From an uncultured Candidatus Saccharibacteria bacterium (GTDB lineage: Bacteria > Patescibacteriota > Minisyncoccia > Phycocordibacterales > PCTT01), in assembly GCA_964566505.1 (NCBI GenBank), contig CAZMIM010000003.1, positions 16,463 through 80,462 on the forward strand: a DNA stretch of 64,000 nt, in the 5' to 3' direction. The notes below the pieces were generated by a model, which was not told where the DNA came from, searched no databases, and was given only the letters and a program-made list of their open reading frames with translations. The position numbers and the translations under genes were made by a program. Below, piece by piece: positions 852 through 46,548 of the stretch (position 1 is its first letter; the number at the start of each line of letters is the position of its first letter).

Positions 852-3050
852 CTACTTTGGCCATTTCTCCACAAGAAGAAGTTTCTTGTTTGCGATAGGA
901 AGATGCTCCCATACCTCTTCCGTAATATATGGCATAAATGGATGAAGCATTTTTGTGATTGTTTCAAGTATATATACAAGTGTCCACACTGCACTCCGAG
1001 TATCACCCGATGTTCCTTCTTGAAGGCGCTCTTTGCTTTCCTCAAGTATTACATCTGCAAATCTATGCCATGCATAGTGGTATAGTTTTTCTCCCGCAAG
1101 ATGTAGACGGTATTCTTCAATATCTCTTGTTACATCCTTAACAAGTTTGTGTAGTTCATCAATATATGTTTGGTCAACAGGTTTTATTTCTGGTTTGTGT
1201 TCATAAATAAATGTTTCAGGAATATTTGAAAGAACAAATCGGGTTATGTTCCAAAGTTTGTTAGAGAAGTGTCGGTACGCCTTTACTTTGGCATCTCCAA
1301 TAGAATTGTCAGCACCCGGCCCAACACCTACAATAAGCGCCATTCTGAGTGCATCTGCCCCATATTTTTCTATGTATTCAAGTGGGTCCACAATGTTTCC
1401 AAGCGATTTGGACATTTTTCGTCCTTTTTCGTCACGCACAAGACCATGTAGATATACTGTTTTAAAAGGGATATCACCAAGTAGGAATCCGCTCATTAAA
1501 ATCATTCGTGCCACCCAGAAAAATATAATGTCGTATCCGGTTTCAAGTAGGTTTGTGGGGTGGTATGTGTTTAGGTCGTCTGTTTGCTCAGGCCATCCAA
1601 GTGTTGAGAATGTCCAAAGACCTGAAGAGAACCATGTATCAAGTGTGTCAGGGTCTTGTGTCCATCCATTCTCATCAGGCGCATCTACACCAACGTGTAT
1701 TTCACTTCCTTTGTACCAAACTGGTATTTGGTGTCCGTACCATATTTGTCGTGAAATATTCCAATCACGAAGATTATCAATCCATTGGAAATATGTTTTT
1801 TCAAAACGATCAGGAATAATCTCGATATGCTTATCGCGCACAACATGCTGCATGATATTTTTGAGTGTTGTTTGTGAGCCACTTTCAATTCCAGGAATGT
1901 TTGAGTGAGGAAGTGTGAATTCTTTATTTACGTTTACAAACCACTGGTTGAGTATTTGCGGTTCGATGATTCCACCACCTCGTGAGTTTGTGGCTATTTT
2001 GTTTGTGTATTCATCATCAATCTTTACTACCAAACCTTTTTCATCAAGTTTTTTAATGATTTCTTCTCGAGCAACCTTTATCTTTTGCCCCTCAAACTCT
2101 TTTGCCACTGGAAGAAGCTTTCCGTAAAGGTCTATGATTTGCTCTTTATCAAGGTCGTATTTCTCTGCCAGCTCAAAGTCAGCAACAGAGTGCCAAGGTG
2201 TAATAGTCATAACACCTGTACCAAAGTCCATATCAATCATTTCATCTTTTATGATTGTTGTAGTGATTGGTCCATTTATCCATTCAATTTCGAGCTCTTG
2301 TCCGTGCTCGTACTTTTTATATCGAGGATCTTCTGGGTGCATTACCACATATTTATCACCAAACTTTGTTTCAGGTCGTGCAGTACCAATTACAAATGGG
2401 CCGTATTGTAGATAATAAAATGGAGTTGTTTGCTCCATATACTCTATCTCATCGTCAGACACGGTTGTTTGCATCTTTGGGTCCCAGTTTACGATTCGCT
2501 CTCCTCGATAAATAAGGCCTGCTTCATACATGCGAGTAAATGCTGTGCGTACTGCAAACTCTCGTTCTCCATCGAGGGTGTATGCCTCTCGAGACCAGTC
2601 GACAGATGCTCCCATTTGAGCGACTTGAGACACTATTGTGTCATGGCTTTCTTGTGCAAACTTTTCAACTCGCTTGAGGAATTCATCACGCCCAAGGTCG
2701 TGCCTGTTTTTCTTTTCTTTTTTATACAACTCTTTTTCTACCTTTGACTGTGTTGCAATGGCTGCGTGGTCTGTACCAGGTATCCAAAGTGTTTTCTTTC
2801 CGTTCATTCTCTGGTATCGCACTACGATATCTTCAATCGCAAGCATGCTAGCGTGGCCAGTGTGTAGTGTACCCGTAACATTTGGTGGTGGAAGTACGAT
2901 AGAAAAAGCTTCTGCGTCAGCTTTTGTGACACCTTTTTCTACGCATATATCTGGGTTAAAAAACCCACTGTTTTTCCAGAGGGAATATATTCGTCCTTCT
3001 GTTTCATTAAAATCGTAGGGAGATAGGAATTTTTCTGGTATTTCTCTCAT
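852..3050 (-). CDS. valS: valine--tRNA ligase (class I; short form lacking C-terminal coiled coil)
   Basis: PPPNVTGTLHTGHA HIGH-region and KMSKSLGN motif; ValRS-type N-terminus PYDFNETEGRIY..W. Confidence 0.88.
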   Translation of the reverse strand: MREIPEKFLSPYDFNETEGRIYSLWKNSGFFNPDICVEKGVTKADAEAFSIVLPPPNVTGTLHTGHASMLAIEDIVVRYQRMNGKKTLWIPGTDHAAIATQSKVEKELYKKEKKNRHDLGRDEFLKRVEKFAQESHDTIVSQVAQMGASVDWSREAYTLDGEREFAVRTAFTRMYEAGLIYRGERIVNWDPKMQTTVSDDEIEYMEQTTPFYYLQYGPFVIGTARPETKFGDKYVVMHPEDPRYKKYEHGQELEIEWINGPITTTIIKDEMIDMDFGTGVMTITPWHSVADFELAEKYDLDKEQIIDLYGKLLPVAKEFEGQKIKVAREEIIKKLDEKGLVVKIDDEYTNKIATNSRGGGIIEPQILNQWFVNVNKEFTLPHSNIPGIESGSQTTLKNIMQHVVRDKHIEIIPDRFEKTYFQWIDNLRDWNISRQIWYGHQIPVWYKGSEIHVGVDAPDENGWTQDPDTLDTWFSSGLWTFSTLGWPEQTDDLNTYHPTNLLETGYDIIFFWVARMILMSGFLLGDIPFKTVYLHGLVRDEKGRKMSKSLGNIVDPLEYIEKYGADALRMALIVGVGPGADNSIGDAKVKAYRHFSNKLWNITRFVLSNIPETFIYEHKPEIKPVDQTYIDELHKLVKDVTRDIEEYRLHLAGEKLYHYAWHRFADVILEESKERLQEGTSGDTRSAVWTLVYILETITKMLHPFMPYITEEVWEHLPIANKKLLLVEKWPK

Positions 3051-23512: not shown

Positions 23513-24940
23513 ATGGCAAAAGCAAAAACAACCACAAAAAAGAATACTAAGTCTAAAGCAAAAAAATCTACAAAGACTACTAAAAAAGCGGTCAAAACCC
23601 GCCTGAAACGACGCGTAGTCGGGCAGGAAACCGTAAAGAAGGTAGCAAAAAAGTCTAGCAAAAAAGCTACGCCAAAGAAAAAAACAACCATAAAAAAGAA
23701 AGCTACACCAAAAAAGAAGGTAGCTAAGAAAAAAACAACAACTAAGAAAAAGAGTGTTACAAAAAAAGCTGTGAAAAAGACAGCTAAAGCGGCTACACCA
23801 AAAAAGAAAGTTGCAAAAAAGACAGCAACTAAAAAGGAAAAAGTTTTAACACCAAAACAAAAGCGTGCTGAACGAAGAAAGAAAGAGAAAATCAAACTTC
23901 TAACTGGAATGGGGCAGGAGAGAGGCTTTGTTACATACGATGAGATTCTAAAAGTATTTAATACTATTGAGGATGATATTGTTCTTCTTGAAGAAATATA
24001 TGAGACATTCAATGAAGTAGGTATTGATGTTATTGAAGGAGGAGGACTTCTTTCTCTTGGAAATGAAGATGATGATAGTTCTAGTCCATATAAATCAAAA
24101 GGTTCGTCTGTACATGACTCTATTCAGATGTATTTAAAGGAGATTGGTAAGTATGAGCTCATTGATGCAGATATGGAGAAAGATCTTGCGCGTCGTATTG
24201 AGGCGGGAGATGAAGAGGCAAAGAATGTTTTGGCACGAGCAAACCTTCGTCTTGTGGTATCTATTGCAAAGAAATATGCATCTCGAAGCTCAAACCTAAC
24301 ACTTCTTGATCTTATCCAAGAAGGTAACCTAGGACTCTTTAAAGCGGTAGATAAATTCGACTATTCTCGAGGATTTAAATTCTCAACATATGCTACATGG
24401 TGGATTCGCCAAGCTATCACTCGGGCGCTTGCAGACCAGTCACGAACTATTCGTATTCCTGTTCACATGGTGGAGACGATTGCAAAATACAAAAGAGTGG
24501 TGCGACAGCTATCACAAGACCTTGGACGCGACCCGCTTCCTGAGGAGATTGCAATGGAGATGGGGCTTGATATCAAGAAGATTCACACCATTGAAAAGAT
24601 TAAGCAAAACACAGTATCACTTGAAACTCCCGTAGGAGACGCAAGCGACGACAGCTCAACTCTAGGGGACTTTATTGCGGATGAGCATTTGGACTCACCA
24701 GACAAAGAAGCATCACACAGAATTCTTCAAGAGCATGTAACGCAGATTCTTGATGATCTTACGCCAAAAGAGCGAAAGATTCTCGAGATGCGCGTTGGAC
24801 TTACTGACGGTATCTCTCACACACTTGAAGAGGTAGGTAAAGAATTCTCAGTGACTCGTGAGCGTATCAGACAGATTGAAGCAAAGGCCCATGAAAAAAT
24901 AAGACAACACGAAAAATCTCAGTGGCTTAAGAACTTTTAA
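23513..24940 (+). CDS. rpoD: RNA polymerase sigma factor (sigma-70/RpoD family) with lysine-rich N-terminal extension
   Basis: Regions 1.2-4.2 present ([67 protein letters not shown]). The first 120 or so aa are AKK/PKK repeats instead of an acidic region 1.1. Confidence 0.88.
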
Positions 24941-31007: not shown

Positions 31008-31766
31008 ATGATTATTTCATATAAACATATAGGAGAAACTCCGCTTGATGTAATAAAGCGACTACAAAACAGTAATACAGAATTAAAAGAGACGACACTT
31101 TCATATGCTGGGCGTCTGGACCCGCTTGCAGAAGGTGTCATGCTTATACTTTCTGGAGAAAAAGAGAATCAAGAAAGAGAAAAATACCTAAGTTTGCCAA
31201 AGGTGTACGAGAGCAAGATTGTTTTTGGACTTTCTACTGATAGCTATGATGTTCTTGGTGTACTAGAAGAAAATATCAATGATATAGAGGAGAAGTTTGA
31301 TGAGGTGAAGCTATCTACTGCTCTTAAGACATTTTCTGGCGTGTATGAGCAGGCCTATCCTCCTTTTTCTTCAAAAACGATTGATGGTACTCCGCTTTGG
31401 AGACTTGCCCGTGACGGAAAGCTTTCTGGAGTAACACTACCTCGACATGATGTTGAGATTGTATCTCTTGAAACAATAGACTCACCAGAAATGTCAGGAA
31501 ATGATTTGTATGAATATGCTGACCATATGGTCAATCAGGTTGATGGAGATTTTCGGCAAAAAGAAATATTAAAATCATGGGAGCAGTTGAAAGGGGACGA
31601 GACTATGTATCCTACACTTACAATACGACTCTCGGTTTCGAGTGGATTTTATGTACGAAGTTTTGCTCATGAGCTTGGAGAAAAAATTGGTTTGCCAGCT
31701 ATGGCGCTTTCTATTAAACGAACACATGTTGGAGAATACACACAAGGAGATATTACTCATCGATAA
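31008..31766 (+). CDS. divergent TruB-family pseudouridine synthase paralog
   Basis: AGRLDPLAEGVMLI (catalytic Asp retained, His of the GH.G.LD box missing), TIDGTPLW, SGFYVRSFAHELGEKIG blocks line up with TruB. Confidence 0.6.
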   Translation: MIISYKHIGETPLDVIKRLQNSNTELKETTLSYAGRLDPLAEGVMLILSGEKENQEREKYLSLPKVYESKIVFGLSTDSYDVLGVLEENINDIEEKFDEVKLSTALKTFSGVYEQAYPPFSSKTIDGTPLWRLARDGKLSGVTLPRHDVEIVSLETIDSPEMSGNDLYEYADHMVNQVDGDFRQKEILKSWEQLKGDETMYPTLTIRLSVSSGFYVRSFAHELGEKIGLPAMALSIKRTHVGEYTQGDITHR

Positions 31767-32400
31767 ATCCAAAGGCATCACATCTTTTGATGTTATTAGG
31801 GAGCTTCGGAATATATTGGGAATAAAAAAGATGGGACACGCAGGAACTCTAGATCCTCTTGCTACAGGTCTTTTGATTGTGGGAGTAGAGGGTGGAACAA
31901 AAAAGATGGAGGAGTATCTTGGTTTGGACAAAGTGTATGAAGCAGAGGTGCTTATAGGAGAGAAGAGAACCACTGGTGATATGGAAGGGGAAGTGATTGA
32001 TAAAAAAGATGTGTCCTGTGAATATGTTGAGGAAAAAATAGAGTCGGTTCTCTCATCTCTTGTGGGTGAGGTGGAGCTTTCCGTGCCGATATATTCTGCG
32101 ATTAAGGTAGATGGAAAACCGCTTTACTGGTATGCGCGCAACAACAAAGAAGTGGAGGTGCCCAAAAAGATAATGCGGATTCTTGATATTTCATATGGCG
32201 GTATTACAAAACACGAGCGAGGGTGTGTTATAACATTTTCTATACATGTAGGAAGTGGCGCATATATCCGCTCTATTGCAGAAGAAATAGGGGAAAGGCT
32301 AGGGCTACCCGCAGTACTTTTTGGACTTCGAAGAACTCGTATAGGAGATTTTGATATAAAAGATGCTAGCACACTTGAGGAGCTTAAAAAGGCTCTATAA
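31726..32400 (+). CDS. truB: tRNA pseudouridine(55) synthase TruB
   Basis: Canonical LLIDKSKGITSFDVI...MGHAGTLDPLATGLL, YSAIKVDGKPLYWYAR, GAYIRSIAEEIGERLG. Start at the ATG at 31726, which overlaps the upstream paralog by 41 nt. Confidence 0.8.
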   Translation: MLENTHKEILLIDKSKGITSFDVIRELRNILGIKKMGHAGTLDPLATGLLIVGVEGGTKKMEEYLGLDKVYEAEVLIGEKRTTGDMEGEVIDKKDVSCEYVEEKIESVLSSLVGEVELSVPIYSAIKVDGKPLYWYARNNKEVEVPKKIMRILDISYGGITKHERGCVITFSIHVGSGAYIRSIAEEIGERLGLPAVLFGLRRTRIGDFDIKDASTLEELKKAL

Positions 32401-43388: not shown

Positions 43389-44162
43389 ATGAAAAAAATA
43401 CTTATTTATACATTTATCACATCGCTTTTCTTTATTTCGGTTCAAAATGTAGAAGCAGAAGAATATGAGATTGGTAAATATACAGTGATTATCGAAGAGA
43501 GTTGTGATCGTTCTATTTATATTATGACCGATGTTGTAAGAGACAGCTCTGGTTCAGATACGTGGCGTATTGTGTGTGAGCTTCATAAAGATGGAGAGGC
43601 TCATAAGGGAATAAATATATTTAATCTAGAAGAAATAATTCAAGCAAAAGAGAAAAGCGAAAAAGGTTGGTCACAAAAGAATGAAACAGAGGAAACAGAA
43701 GATGTAGAAGAAGAGAAAGTAGAAGAAGGGGGATTTTCTATCTGGATACAAGACATGACAACAGGTGTATCTTCTTTTATTTCAGGAGAAATATTGTGTA
43801 AAAATGAAGCCTCAAAACAACCACAAAAGGGGAGTATTGTCTCAATGAGCGGTGATATTTTTATCACAAGAGGTATAAAAATATTCCCTGCGACAGGAAG
43901 CGATGCACTTATTGGTGGAGATATTCTTACAATAAGAGATGAGTCAACAGCTACAATTTTGCTAAATGATACAGGTCAGCTAAAAATAAGTCAGAAAACA
44001 AGGTTTCAGATTCCAAGAGAGCCTTATACATGCGCTCGAAACAAAGCAATCTTTGGAATAAAAAATGGAATCGGAAGTATATGGAATGCACTCAAAGACA
44101 ACCTGAAGGGAGAGAGTTATGAAATAAAAACCCCATCAGGTACTCCAGGCGTAAGAGGGTAG
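43389..44162 (+). CDS. secreted protein with FecR-like C-terminal domain
   Basis: Signal peptide; GDIFITRG...GGDILTIRDESTATILLNDTGQLKISQKTRFQI resembles the FecR domain. Confidence 0.4.
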   Translation: MKKILIYTFITSLFFISVQNVEAEEYEIGKYTVIIEESCDRSIYIMTDVVRDSSGSDTWRIVCELHKDGEAHKGINIFNLEEIIQAKEKSEKGWSQKNETEETEDVEEEKVEEGGFSIWIQDMTTGVSSFISGEILCKNEASKQPQKGSIVSMSGDIFITRGIKIFPATGSDALIGGDILTIRDESTATILLNDTGQLKISQKTRFQIPREPYTCARNKAIFGIKNGIGSIWNALKDNLKGESYEIKTPSGTPGVRG

Positions 44163-44257
44163 AGATACTAGAGTTATACTTCTACTCAAGAGTCGCTTTT
44201 GAGAATATTACATGAAATGTTTTGCAGTATATTACCGCCGTGCCATATAATATATTT

Positions 44258-44833
44258 ATGATAAATAAAATAACAGCAACAAGCTTATTAATAGGTGTCT
44301 TAATTGGTGTTGGAATTGTTTTTTTAAAAAACGATAATCAAATTGATAAAAATAATAAATCATCACAATTAAATAAAGATAATTGTTTATCAGAAGATTG
44401 TTTAATAGTAGATGATTTAGAATATCCAGCCAGCCAACTACCAGCAGACGTTGAACAAGCTCTGTATGAGGCAATTCAAGACGAGTATAAAGCAAGGACT
44501 TTATATGAAGTAACGATAGATAAATTTGGTGCAGTAAGACCTTTTTCAATGATTGTTAGGGCAGAGGAACAACACATAAGTTCTTTAAAATCTATTTATG
44601 ATAAATATGGTTTAGATATTCCTGATCCAGAAAATATATCACTATCTATGCCAGATAAATTATCAGAGGTTTGTCAGATTGGAGTAGATGCTGAAATTGC
44701 AAATGTTAATTTGTACAAAAATGAACTTTTATCAAAGGTTTATGAGTATCCAGATATAACTTCTGTATTCAACAACTTAATGAATGCATCACAGGAAAAA
44801 CATCTCCCAGCTTTCGAGAGATGCGCAAAATAG
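44258..44833 (+). CDS. DUF2202-like ferritin-fold protein, membrane-anchored
   Basis: EALYEAIQDEYKARTLYE...VRAEEQHISSLKSIYDKYG paired E-x-x-H-like helices; markedly AT-rich codon usage. Confidence 0.5.
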   Translation: MINKITATSLLIGVLIGVGIVFLKNDNQIDKNNKSSQLNKDNCLSEDCLIVDDLEYPASQLPADVEQALYEAIQDEYKARTLYEVTIDKFGAVRPFSMIVRAEEQHISSLKSIYDKYGLDIPDPENISLSMPDKLSEVCQIGVDAEIANVNLYKNELLSKVYEYPDITSVFNNLMNASQEKHLPAFERCAK

Positions 44834-44988
44834 ATACTCAATCTTTCTTTCTAGCGCACATACCGTTGAAGGAGTTGTGTTTTGTTGTGAAGCAAAGCTT
44901 CTACTATGGGGTTAGAACTTGTTTCGTGTAAAAGAAAACCGCCCATCCGAAGACGAGCGGTCTTCGAAGAGGGCGGTGTGATTGAATC

Positions 44989-45543
44989 TCACATGTAGTG
45001 TCGGTCTGCGGGTGTCAATTTACGAGACCTTTCATTTACAGGGATTTCTGTCATGTGGTTTCGGATGAAATCCCTTTTGATATCCATTGACCTTGAACGA
45101 ATTTTATCTTCATCCAAGTTTCTACCACCAAGCACTGTTGCAAGAAGACCAAGAGCCTGAGATTCTAATTGTCTTCCGTAGAGATTGTCGTCGAGTCTGG
45201 CTCGATCTCGTGACTCTTGATGAACCAATGGTTCTTTGCAGTCGAGTGCCCAGAACCTTTCCATTGCAACAATGAATGAAGATGCGGACAAGTCTTCAAG
45301 GCTATTTACAAATCTGACAAAATTTGTAGCCTCGGATTCTCCTACATCTTTTTTTATCCCGAGATATATCATCTCGAGAATTTTTGAATTCAGGTCTCCC
45401 AAAGAGGGTGGACGGCCTGCGTAAAATCCACTACGGAACAGGAATTTCCCTTCTGTCCATTCAAGAGAGGCTTCCATTAAAGGCTTGTTCATTGAAATAC
45501 CTTTGATTGTGAGTTGTACAAATTCATGGATATGATACCACAA
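44989..45543 (-). CDS. orphan hypothetical protein in accessory islet (probable start at 45492, MNKPLMEAS)
   Basis: Own promoter-like TAGACA-17-TATCAT upstream and own large terminator hairpin at 44935-44985 on the minus strand; no recognisable domain. Confidence 0.45.
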   Translation of the reverse strand: MWYHIHEFVQLTIKGISMNKPLMEASLEWTEGKFLFRSGFYAGRPPSLGDLNSKILEMIYLGIKKDVGESEATNFVRFVNSLEDLSASSFIVAMERFWALDCKEPLVHQESRDRARLDDNLYGRQLESQALGLLATVLGGRNLDEDKIRSRSMDIKRDFIRNHMTEIPVNERSRKLTPADRHYM

Positions 45544-45680
45544 TATTGTACTTTTGTCTAGCTCCGATGGGTGAGGGAAGTTTATCCCGCGTTTGCGGGG
45601 TTAGAACTTATTTAATAGAAAAAGCCCCTTGATGTTATCTCGGGGCTTCATCCGATTATGTATACCAAATCGGGAAATCT

Positions 45681-45908
45681 TCACTTACAAGCCAAATCCT
45701 TGATACGTCTTTCCTCTTCGTGGGAGACCCCGTCGATAAAGACGACATACATGCCTTGTTTGTAGAGCTTTATGAAGGCCCTCGCGGCACAGAAGAGGCT
45801 TGAGAATCTGCGCTCAAAGTTAGAGCACAGATCGTCGTATCCAAAAACTTTGTACATGACAGTTGTCCTTGTTTGAGTTAATCTGGAAGTCTCCTTATAT
45901 AGTATCAT
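45681..45908 (-). CDS. orphan small hypothetical protein (58-75 aa)
   Basis: Followed on the minus strand by the terminator AGCCCCGAGATAACATCAAGGGGCT plus T-run at 45622-45650; no motif recognised. Confidence 0.35.
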   Translation of the reverse strand: MILYKETSRLTQTRTTVMYKVFGYDDLCSNFERRFSSLFCAARAFIKLYKQGMYVVFIDGVSHEEERRIKDLACK

Positions 45909-45991
45909 AATATATAGTATGTGTCAAGAATTAGGTTCTAACTCCCAATTGGGGTATAAAAAATAACCGCCTTGTTAAGCGATTATTTTCT

Positions 45992-46330
45992 TGGCTCCGC
46001 GGGCGGGATTCGAACCTGCAACCTACCGGTTACACGTATCCTAATATTTCTAAAAGGGGTGGACTATATCATCATCCTCTGAATATTCAGGAGGATGCAA
46101 GGCGCTTCCCAATGTTACGTAATCTGTTACGTAACAAGAGTACTCCCAAAAGGGATAGTCTCTGAACCTTCTTACCTAAATAGGTAAGCTTGGCTGCTGA
46201 TTACCCACGACTTTACGTTTGGGCTTCCAGACAATTCACCTTGTTTTCGACCTACATTTCTGTAGGAAGCTGCTATTTGAAACGAAGTTTCGTGTTACAG
46301 CCGGTTGCTCTACCATTGAGCTACCGCGGA
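45992..46330 (-). tRNA. tRNA gene interrupted by a group I intron in the anticodon loop (intron about 46033-46296); identity Asn(GUU) favoured, Thr(UGU) possible
   Basis: 5' exon TCCGCGGTAGCTCAATGGTAGAGCAACCGGCT(GT) and 3' exon (TAA)CCGGTAGGTTGCAGGTTCGAATCCCGCCCGCGGAGCCA form a full cloverleaf with discriminator G and encoded CCA. The intervening roughly 264 nt carries group I core elements R-like GTTCAGAGACTAT and S-like GATATAGTCC. Confidence 0.8.
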
Positions 46331-46548
46331 ATATTTTTTATCCGCGGTAGCTCAATGGCATCACGGAATATAAAAAGATCACGAACCAATAATGATTCGT
46401 GGGGAAATAGTATCAAAAAAAAGTGGATATTGGAAGCGTGATATAATAGGTACATAACAAGAGTATGTTTTTGGTTTTTGAAAATTTAAACATTTAAAAT
46501 TGTTTAGAAATTAAAAATTGAAAATTAGAAATTGGAACAAAGTGACTT

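Follow-up and report, generated by a model that had tools for sequence, protein, structure and literature searches.

Behind a tRNA-Asn gene in the 64-kb stretch of DNA analysed here (the window), a 13-nt motif occurs three times in about 1.1 kb, and one of its copies is part of a hairpin that looks strikingly like a type I-E CRISPR repeat. This raises the question of what the copies are. The first-pass annotation, which had been made from the letters alone, offered a degenerate CRISPR remnant, the recombination site of a small integrated cassette, and a promoter or terminator element. We address the question through the layout of the locus, the identity of the motif, and a comparison with related genomes.

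Layout of the locus

The window covers a housekeeping region, with rpoBC, dnaG, rpoD, ftsAZ, mreBC and genes for aminoacyl-tRNA synthetases. The minus strand carries every local gene, and the order on this strand is tRNA-Asn, terminator, copy 3 of the motif (inverted), promoter, the 58-aa gene, terminator, copy 2, CGGAGCTAGACA, promoter, the 167-aa gene, terminator and copy 1 (Table 1). Past copy 1 lies an AT-rich DUF2202 gene, in convergent orientation. There are three transcription units, each closed by a strong terminator, and a copy of the motif is found at most ~12 nt beyond every one of them. This arrangement, with the motif following the terminator, is a modular cassette layout, here comprising two cassettes. 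The islet had been described as GC-richer than its surroundings, which was not borne out: its GC content is 42.3%, that of the window averages 40.4 ± 3.0%, a value as high is reached by 21% of windows of equal size, and the apparent contrast stems from the AT-rich left neighbour (30%). The islet does not show the atypical base composition of tRNA-integrated islands.

Table 1 Features of the islet and of the adjoining tRNA-Asn gene, in window positions
Feature	Position	Strand	Details
Islet	44908-45991	minus-strand genes	immediately 3' of tRNA-Asn, same strand
Motif copy 1	44908..44920	-	exact 13-mer; T-loop/T-stem-like, without hairpin; ~8 nt past the T-tail of the 167-aa gene terminator
Intrinsic terminator, 167-aa gene	44938..44977	-	-26.4 kcal/mol, z -6.3
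167-aa gene	44989..45492	-	ATG at 45492; 184-aa ORF of the first-pass annotation
CGGAGCTAGACA (45566-45555), then predicted promoter, 167-aa gene	45532..45566	-	TAGACA, 17 nt, TGnTATCAT
Motif copy 2 in composite tRNA-3'-like element	45567..45609	-	exact 13-mer 45597-45609; AAGTTCTAAC-CCCGC AAAC GCGGG-ATAAAC...
Intrinsic terminator, 58-aa gene	45613..45658	-	-18.7 kcal/mol, z -4.3
58-aa gene	45681..45857	-	ATG at 45857, start judged from homologue; 75-aa ORF of the first-pass annotation
Predicted promoter, 58-aa gene	45899..45927	-	TTGACA, 17 nt, TGnTACTAT; strong
Motif copy 3, inverted	45933..45962	+	AGGTTCTAAC-TCCCAATTGGGG-TATAAA; laid out like copy 2; directly past tRNA terminator
Intrinsic terminator, tRNA-Asn gene	45958..45991	-	-14.7 kcal/mol, z -4.8
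tRNA-Asn(GUU) 3' exon	45992..46032	-	T-arm GCAGG-TTCGAAT-CCCGC, pattern match 46005-46015, CCA encoded
Group I intron, anticodon loop, position 35/36	46033..46296	-	Rfam RF00028, 80.9 bits, match 46040-46295
tRNA-Asn 5' exon	46297..46330	-	

The tRNA gene that had been noted next to the inverted copy is indeed there, and is a tRNA-Asn(GUU) gene split by a group I intron (RF00028). ARAGORN missed the unspliced gene, while splicing at 35/36 gives a 75-nt tRNA which is called as tRNA-Asn(GUU). Patescibacteria are known to have tRNA-Asn genes with a group I intron at 35/36 that are missed by standard tRNA finders (PMC13011429), and the gene in the window fits this class. In two syntenic relatives (L009 and L010) the orthologue at precisely this locus is an intron-less tRNA-Asn. 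An 18-nt anti-tRNA leader is located at 46341-46358.

The motif as a probable piece of a tRNA T-arm

The 13-mer GGGGTTAGAACTT reads AAGTTCTAACCCC on the minus strand. It had been annotated as a direct repeat, and the repeat is exact: copy 2 is where it was placed, while copy 1 lies at 44908-44920 and not at 44907-44919. The inverted near-copy reported beside the tRNA was found on the other strand at 45933-45945, with 2 mismatches. The copies are spaced by 689 nt and 325 nt, with a single full-length unit. The repeat between copies 1 and 2 extends to 26 nt with 81% identity; beyond the core, similarity is confined to one flank, where 8/13 bases agree. The CRISPR-like hairpin of copy 2 is located at 45586-45599, within the 30-mer AGTTTATCCCGCGTTTGCGGGGTTAGAACT (45579-45608) that contains the CCCGC/GCGGG stem. 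No further copies of the motif were found elsewhere in the 64-kb window.

AAGTTCTAACCCC has the form of a tRNA T-loop followed by the 3' strand of the T-stem. The adjoining tRNA-Asn has AGGTTCGAATCCCGC in this region, so that the motif and the T-arm of the window's own tRNA-Asn agree at 10/13 positions, and copies 1 and 2 are co-oriented with the tRNA. The pattern GTTCNAAYCCC, which was defined after these two copies had been seen, has three matches in the 64 kb, which fall on the minus strand within 1.1 kb and correspond to copies 1 and 2 and to the T-arm of tRNA-Asn; 0.15 matches are expected, and three were reached in 0/100 shuffles. The same pattern has 11 matches in 97 other loci (0.97 Mb). 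Since 10 of these 11 are T-arms of ARAGORN-called tRNAs, matched in the orientation of the tRNA, the pattern is practically diagnostic of tRNA T-arms. The 11th match belongs to a remnant in L009, at the far end of a one-gene insert behind tRNA-Asn.

Local alignments to the tRNA are marginal for all copies: shuffles scored as well in 63/2000 cases for copy 2, in 65/2000 for copy 3 and in 315/2000 for copy 1. Copy 1 does not continue as tRNA sequence beyond its core. Copy 2 is part of a composite element of ~70 nt, made up of the T-arm-like GTTCKAACCCCGC, a short GC hairpin, RTAAAC and CGGAGC, which is conserved in two Paceibacterota genomes whose proteins are ~65% identical. In the window and in L009 alike, the T-stem is separated from the terminal CGGAGC by ~27 nt that no tRNA accounts for. 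A profile built from these two elements (copy 2 and the L009 remnant) weakly recovers copy 1 (nhmmer E 0.58) as well as the 3' ends of the genuine tRNA-Asn genes in the window, L025 and L026, two more distant Paceibacterota loci.

Comparison with relatives at tRNA-Asn

The closest relative according to PPIase is L009 (GCA_041601015.1), at 65% identity; the comparison covered no closer strains, and the GTDB representatives do not include the window's own genome. The window's organism is otherwise represented by a 1.7-kb Logan contig (L008) alone, and its 167-aa gene is missing from the index. L009 and the window have their right-hand synteny in common (tRNA-Asn, DUF167, HPF, PPIase, fmt, def, MreB). 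Past tRNA-Asn, L009 carries a terminator, an inverted 13-nt copy of the T-arm, a 19-nt direct repeat, a promoter, a 61-aa gene, a terminator and the remnant mentioned above. The direct repeat is an exact copy of the tRNA 3' end over 19 nt (22 nt at 95%), and the 61-aa gene, which has its own promoter and terminator, is an unrelated one. The remnant, ACAGGTTCGAACCCCGCCTCCTGCGTGGTAAAC...GGCGGAGCC, agrees in its first 17 nt with the window's tRNA-Asn T-arm at 16/17 positions, and its full length (1989-1921) can be aligned to copy 2, with 70% identity across 69 nt and an E of 4.6e-5 for the space searched. A second similarity connects the segment formed by CGGAGCTAGACA and the promoter behind it with the tRNA-end repeat and promoter of L009 (85% over 33 nt); the genes that follow are unrelated.

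In L025 and L026 the islet is absent. It is therefore variable, since these two have nothing between tRNA-Asn and the next gene. The differing contents of L009, L025 and L026 indicate that different small cassettes are found behind tRNA-Asn in different lineages, with tRNA-fragment repeats as their limits.

Origin of the repeats

We favour, with moderate confidence, the interpretation that the motif copies are att-type tRNA-fragment scars, which separate self-contained cassettes at an integration hotspot in tRNA-Asn. The three copies would be degenerate pieces of the T-arm and 3' end of tRNA-Asn, left as scars when a site-specific recombination event took place in the T-loop of the adjoining gene. 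The T-loop is said to have been described by Williams in 2002 as a sublocation of crossover sites. Recombination there would regenerate the tRNA, while the fragment that it displaces would come to lie at the distal end in the orientation of the tRNA, and repeated events would build up a tandem array, of which the islet could be a small and decayed example. Each unit would then comprise a gene with a promoter and a terminator of its own, and a repeat derived from the tRNA would follow it; the 13-nt identity of copies 1 and 2 would most simply represent a duplicated recombination core around the 689-bp cassette of the 167-aa gene. The CRISPR-like hairpin may be a by-product, the GC-rich T-stem strand CCCGC happening to precede a complementary GCGGG. 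The position and orientation of the motif, its T-arm identity, the homologous element and exact tRNA repeat in L009, and the lack of the islet in L025 and L026 are direct observations, from which we infer an integrase as the maker of the repeats and the order of these events.

Such a sequence of events is known from larger elements: a tRNA gene is split on integration and made whole again by sequence from the island, whose end can be recognised by the displaced fragment, and tandem arrays can form at one tDNA (Islander, PMC4383910). Like tRNA-integrated islands and prophage remnants, the islet directly adjoins the 3' side of a tRNA gene, has co-oriented T-loop/T-stem-like fragments downstream of it, and differs in content among relatives, one of which has the exact tRNA 3'-end repeat; its repeats, arranged in series, separate independent units. 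It differs from these islands in its extremely small size of two cassettes in ~1.1 kb without an integrase, in the degeneracy of its fragments, of which one is inverted, in the unexplained insert of the composite element, and in having a tRNA with a group I intron as its target. There is also a likeness to integron gene cassettes, which are serial single-gene units with short recombination-site-like repeats and imperfect hairpins between them. In contrast to integrons, the islet lacks intI, attI and a shared promoter, every gene being equipped with a promoter and terminator of its own, and its repeats derive from a tRNA and do not resemble attC.

A Pfam search identified no integrase or recombinase in the islet or among ~45 ORFs scanned across the window. 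If the islet is an island, it can therefore only be a decayed remnant, and since no recombinase remains, the islet would now be fixed and its repeats are probably without current function. The inversion of copy 3 is not produced by simple integration. Further points against the favoured reading are the 10/13 agreement with the window's own tRNA, the marginal local alignments, the abrupt end of the tRNA likeness in copy 1, the ~27-nt insert, and the lack of related sequences in phage, plasmid and IMG/VR collections. The 5' and 3' parts of the window's tRNA are equally diverged from their counterparts in relatives, which gives no clear indication that the tRNA was regenerated as a chimera; the sole remaining hint of this is an A.C mismatch in the T-stem. 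Of the origins proposed in the first-pass annotation, the att or recombination site of a small cassette gives the best fit, although the repeat is most likely a fragment of a tRNA T-arm and 3' end and not a co-opted CRISPR repeat. The islet is thus most likely an ordinary kind of feature in an unusual organism, a tiny degraded tRNA islet with tRNA-fragment scars. It would identify tRNA-Asn as a site of small-scale gene turnover in the ultra-small genomes of Paceibacterota, even where this tRNA contains a group I intron. If intact elements with the same core exist, they would show how gene flow works in CPR bacteria.

Alternative explanations

The copies could instead be a functional, T-arm-like cis-element, placed after terminators and before promoters and kept by selection because it helps to end transcripts, to process their 3' ends or to stabilise the RNA, or because it is an operator bound by a protein. 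We consider this unlikely, although several observations agree with it. Three consecutive terminators are each followed by a copy at close range, -35 boxes begin 5 nt downstream of copy 3 and ~36 nt downstream of copy 2, and the conserved element of L009 is again found directly past the T-tail of a terminator, despite the divergence of the two genomes. The composite element is seen in one relative, L009, and other orthologous intergenic stretches are also ~70% conserved between L009 and the window, which leaves room for a conserved function. On the other hand, no structure is common to the copies: the L009 sequence loses the hairpin when folded to its MFE, shuffled sequences fold as well as copy 3, the fold z-scores of the copies range from -2.0 to +0.35, and a two-sequence RNAalifold was unconvincing. 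Copy 1 is not followed by a promoter or gene on which it could act, and the orientation of the copies is not uniform. The element is also lacking at tRNA-Asn in L025 and L026, as well as at five further loci with homologues of the 167-aa protein. A generic, genome-wide promoter or terminator element, as had been suggested, is not supported, because the window holds no other copies, even though each of the three lies just past a terminator.

It could also be that the pairing of copies 1 and 2 is a coincidence, in which case copy 2 alone would be a meaningful tRNA-like relic and there would be no cassette boundaries; to this we assign a still lower probability. The exact 13-mer pair is in itself weak evidence, since ~1.3 such pairs within 1 kb are expected per window from block-shuffled sequence (12 exist), and the 4 matches found in the window at up to 2 mismatches are reached by 6/100 shuffles. 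The one-sided similarity of the flanks would likewise agree with chance. Against it, both copies are located in the ~8.5% of the window outside ORFs, where ~0.01 pairs are expected, and they are co-oriented and at an equal distance past the T-tail of a terminator. It is because they are both non-coding and placed alike, a few bases beyond these tails, that copies 1 and 2 stand above chance. The T-arm pattern, which in the window matches the two copies and the tRNA alone, argues in the same direction.

A more speculative possibility, which we regard as quite improbable, is that the composite element is a functional module. It could be an integron-like site, used by an integrase acting in trans to swap single-gene cassettes behind tRNA-Asn in genome-reduced CPR bacteria, or a solitary mimic of a CRISPR repeat that an episymbiont expresses.

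Resemblance to CRISPR repeats

The least probable of the explanations is that copy 2 is a degenerate or solitary CRISPR repeat of the I-E style, which would be what is left of an array since lost, or else a repeat-mimic RNA. The likeness itself is genuine as judged by shuffling: when copy 2 was aligned with the E. coli I-E repeat, GAGTTCCCCGCGCCAGCGGGGATAAACCG, none of 2000-3000 shuffles aligned as well, and the alignment takes in GTTC, the CCCGC/GCGGG stem and ATAAAC. The homologue in L009 retains CCCCGC...GCGTGGTAAAC, which 71/3000 shuffles equalled. Solitary repeat units are moreover a known phenomenon, described as RNA anti-CRISPRs (PMC10651486). Copy 2 has in common with type I-E repeats and with these units its length of 28-30 nt, GTTC, a 5-bp GC stem, a 4-nt loop and an ATAAAC tail, and like the solitary units it stands singly with no cas gene nearby.

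The alignment requires three gaps, however, one of them a 3-nt insert, and its first half is equally well explained by the T-arm, which accounts for the first 17 nt (16/17 in L009). The likeness pointed out in the first-pass annotation is real but gapped. No CRISPR-DR family of Rfam was matched even at E<=10. The annotation was right that the window has neither an array nor cas genes, as TRF found no array and a Pfam search of ~45 ORFs revealed no cas gene or Cas domain. Scans for the repeat beyond the window used exact patterns with a free loop. The stem-plus-handle pattern had 0 matches in GTDB genomes and IMG/VR and one isolated match in JGI metagenomes (L007), inside high-GC coding-like DNA, and no array of the repeat came to light in these collections. 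Solitary units of the kind described are encoded on mobile elements and mimic the repeat of a CRISPR-Cas system that they encounter, and here too copy 2 differs: the locus is chromosomal and of housekeeping character, and nothing similar to it was found in phage and plasmid collections. The idea of a degenerate CRISPR remnant is therefore not supported, a strong case against a CRISPR origin of the motif being made by the gapped likeness, the match to the T-arm, and the lack of an array, cas genes or an Rfam match in these searches.

The CRISPR likeness is incidental, and the finding is a fairly ordinary one, because the motif is most likely a leftover of tRNA-Asn. Its main value lies in the correction, in which a striking I-E repeat likeness was traced to a probable fragment of a tRNA T-arm. 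A CRISPR origin should therefore not be proposed for short GC hairpins near tRNAs until they have been compared with the tRNA itself.

The proteins encoded in the islet

The two genes had been described as orphans, which they are not. The 167-aa protein has 16 homologues in Paceibacterota metagenomes, with 45-57% identity, and a profile search extends its family to 468 clusters at 50% identity, while the 58-aa protein has one homologue (74% identity) in another genomic context. Neither protein was matched in Pfam, NCBIfam, PHROG or PADLOC, and the 58-aa protein is uncharacterised. The predicted, confident model of the 167-aa protein is all-alpha (pLDDT 91), with no fold match in the PDB, and its family is without annotation. 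Searches of phage and plasmid collections with the DNA of the islet (blastn) and with both proteins (tblastn) had no match, and a profile scan of IMG/VR showed no relative. Neither of the two suggests a function for the motif.

The motif is absent beside the homologues of the 167-aa protein in L001, L005, L094, L095 and L097. The genomic position of this family is a supporting hint for the favoured reading, as its members lie downstream of a tRNA, and co-oriented with it, in 4/6 independent contexts; the tRNAs are tRNA-Asn in the window, tRNA-Gln in L001 and L005, and tRNA-Pro in L095. This uncharacterised all-alpha family thus tends toward tRNA-proximal positions like that of the islet. In L005, an inverted 16-nt copy of the locus's own tRNA-Gln T-arm is present.

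The tRNA-Asn gene and its intron

The tRNA-Asn(GUU) gene behind which the islet lies (see the table) carries at position 35/36 a group I intron, about 264 nt long, that Rfam matches with 80.9 bits, and ARAGORN made no call of this split gene. The tRNA-Asn orthologues of the two syntenic relatives, L009 (GCA_041601015.1) and L010, have no intron. The class to which this split tRNA-Asn belongs is a recent description from Patescibacteria (PMC13011429).

Positions of the islet gene and of its neighbours in the window
Feature	Position	Strand	Remark
FecR-like 257-aa protein and DUF2202 203-aa protein	43389-44833		adjoin the islet on the left
167-aa gene, uncharacterised all-alpha family	44989-45492		AlphaFold2 model
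tRNA-Asn(GUU), intron-split	45992-46330	minus	Rfam match to the intron

In the T-stem of this tRNA-Asn (GCAGG/CCCGC; 46002-46022, minus strand), pair 51-63 is an A.C mismatch; the T-stem of the relatives, with CCTGC or CCTGT, is perfectly paired. The CCCGC variant is common to the tRNA-Asn of the window, its T-arm-like downstream fragments in the islet, and a remnant in L009 (1921-1989). This remnant, which lies farther along from the tRNA-Asn of L009, is closer to the T-arm of the window tRNA-Asn (16/17) than to that of L009 itself.

The 5' end of the tRNA-Asn recurs, inverted and without mismatch over 18 nt, 10 nt upstream of the gene (46313-46358, both copies included). In the precursor, a duplex is predicted between this inverted copy and the initial 18-20 nt of the tRNA (-42.2 kcal/mol, z -7.2), and it could compete with folding or processing of the tRNA. 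In L009 and L010, the sequence upstream of the gene has instead direct copies, also partial, of segments of the tRNA.

Extent of the variable region

Behind the tRNA-Asn of L009 there is an insert of 127 nt, flanked by a 19-nt repeat that copies the tRNA 3' end exactly (2282-2449). The insert includes the tRNA terminator and a piece of T-arm in inverted orientation, the latter broken by a hairpin. The 20-kb contig of L010 ends (position 1) 50 nt behind the tRNA-Asn, within sequence common to L009, and such a break is the outcome that strain-variable content at this site would give in a metagenome assembly. The variable region may also reach beyond the islet, further to the left, since the FecR-like and DUF2202 genes are unusually AT-rich (30-35% GC) and have no synteny to L009, which has BipA there.

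The 167-aa protein family

The family of the 167-aa protein comprises 468 clusters at 50% identity, with invariant residues including AGR, NFVR and D.SA..FIVA. Its AlphaFold2 model is confident, and the family has neither a structural match in the PDB nor a Pfam domain. Homologues are often found co-oriented with and downstream of tRNA genes (loci L001, L005, L095 and L096), at a distance of about 2.5 kb for tRNA-Gln and 125 nt for tRNA-Pro. In L005, 16 nt of the tRNA-Gln T-arm also recur, exact and inverted, at about 650 nt behind that tRNA (2078-2093).

Other features of the window

At 31008-32400, TruB_N is matched by each of two overlapping 252-aa ORFs; these may be one truB that is split or frameshifted, or a pair of adjacent paralogues. 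Within 800 nt there are three copies of the 13-mer AAAGAAAAACCAC (29556, 29839 and 30327), and the 5' part of the sigma-70 gene has 4.3 copies of an 18-nt tandem repeat (23660-23734).
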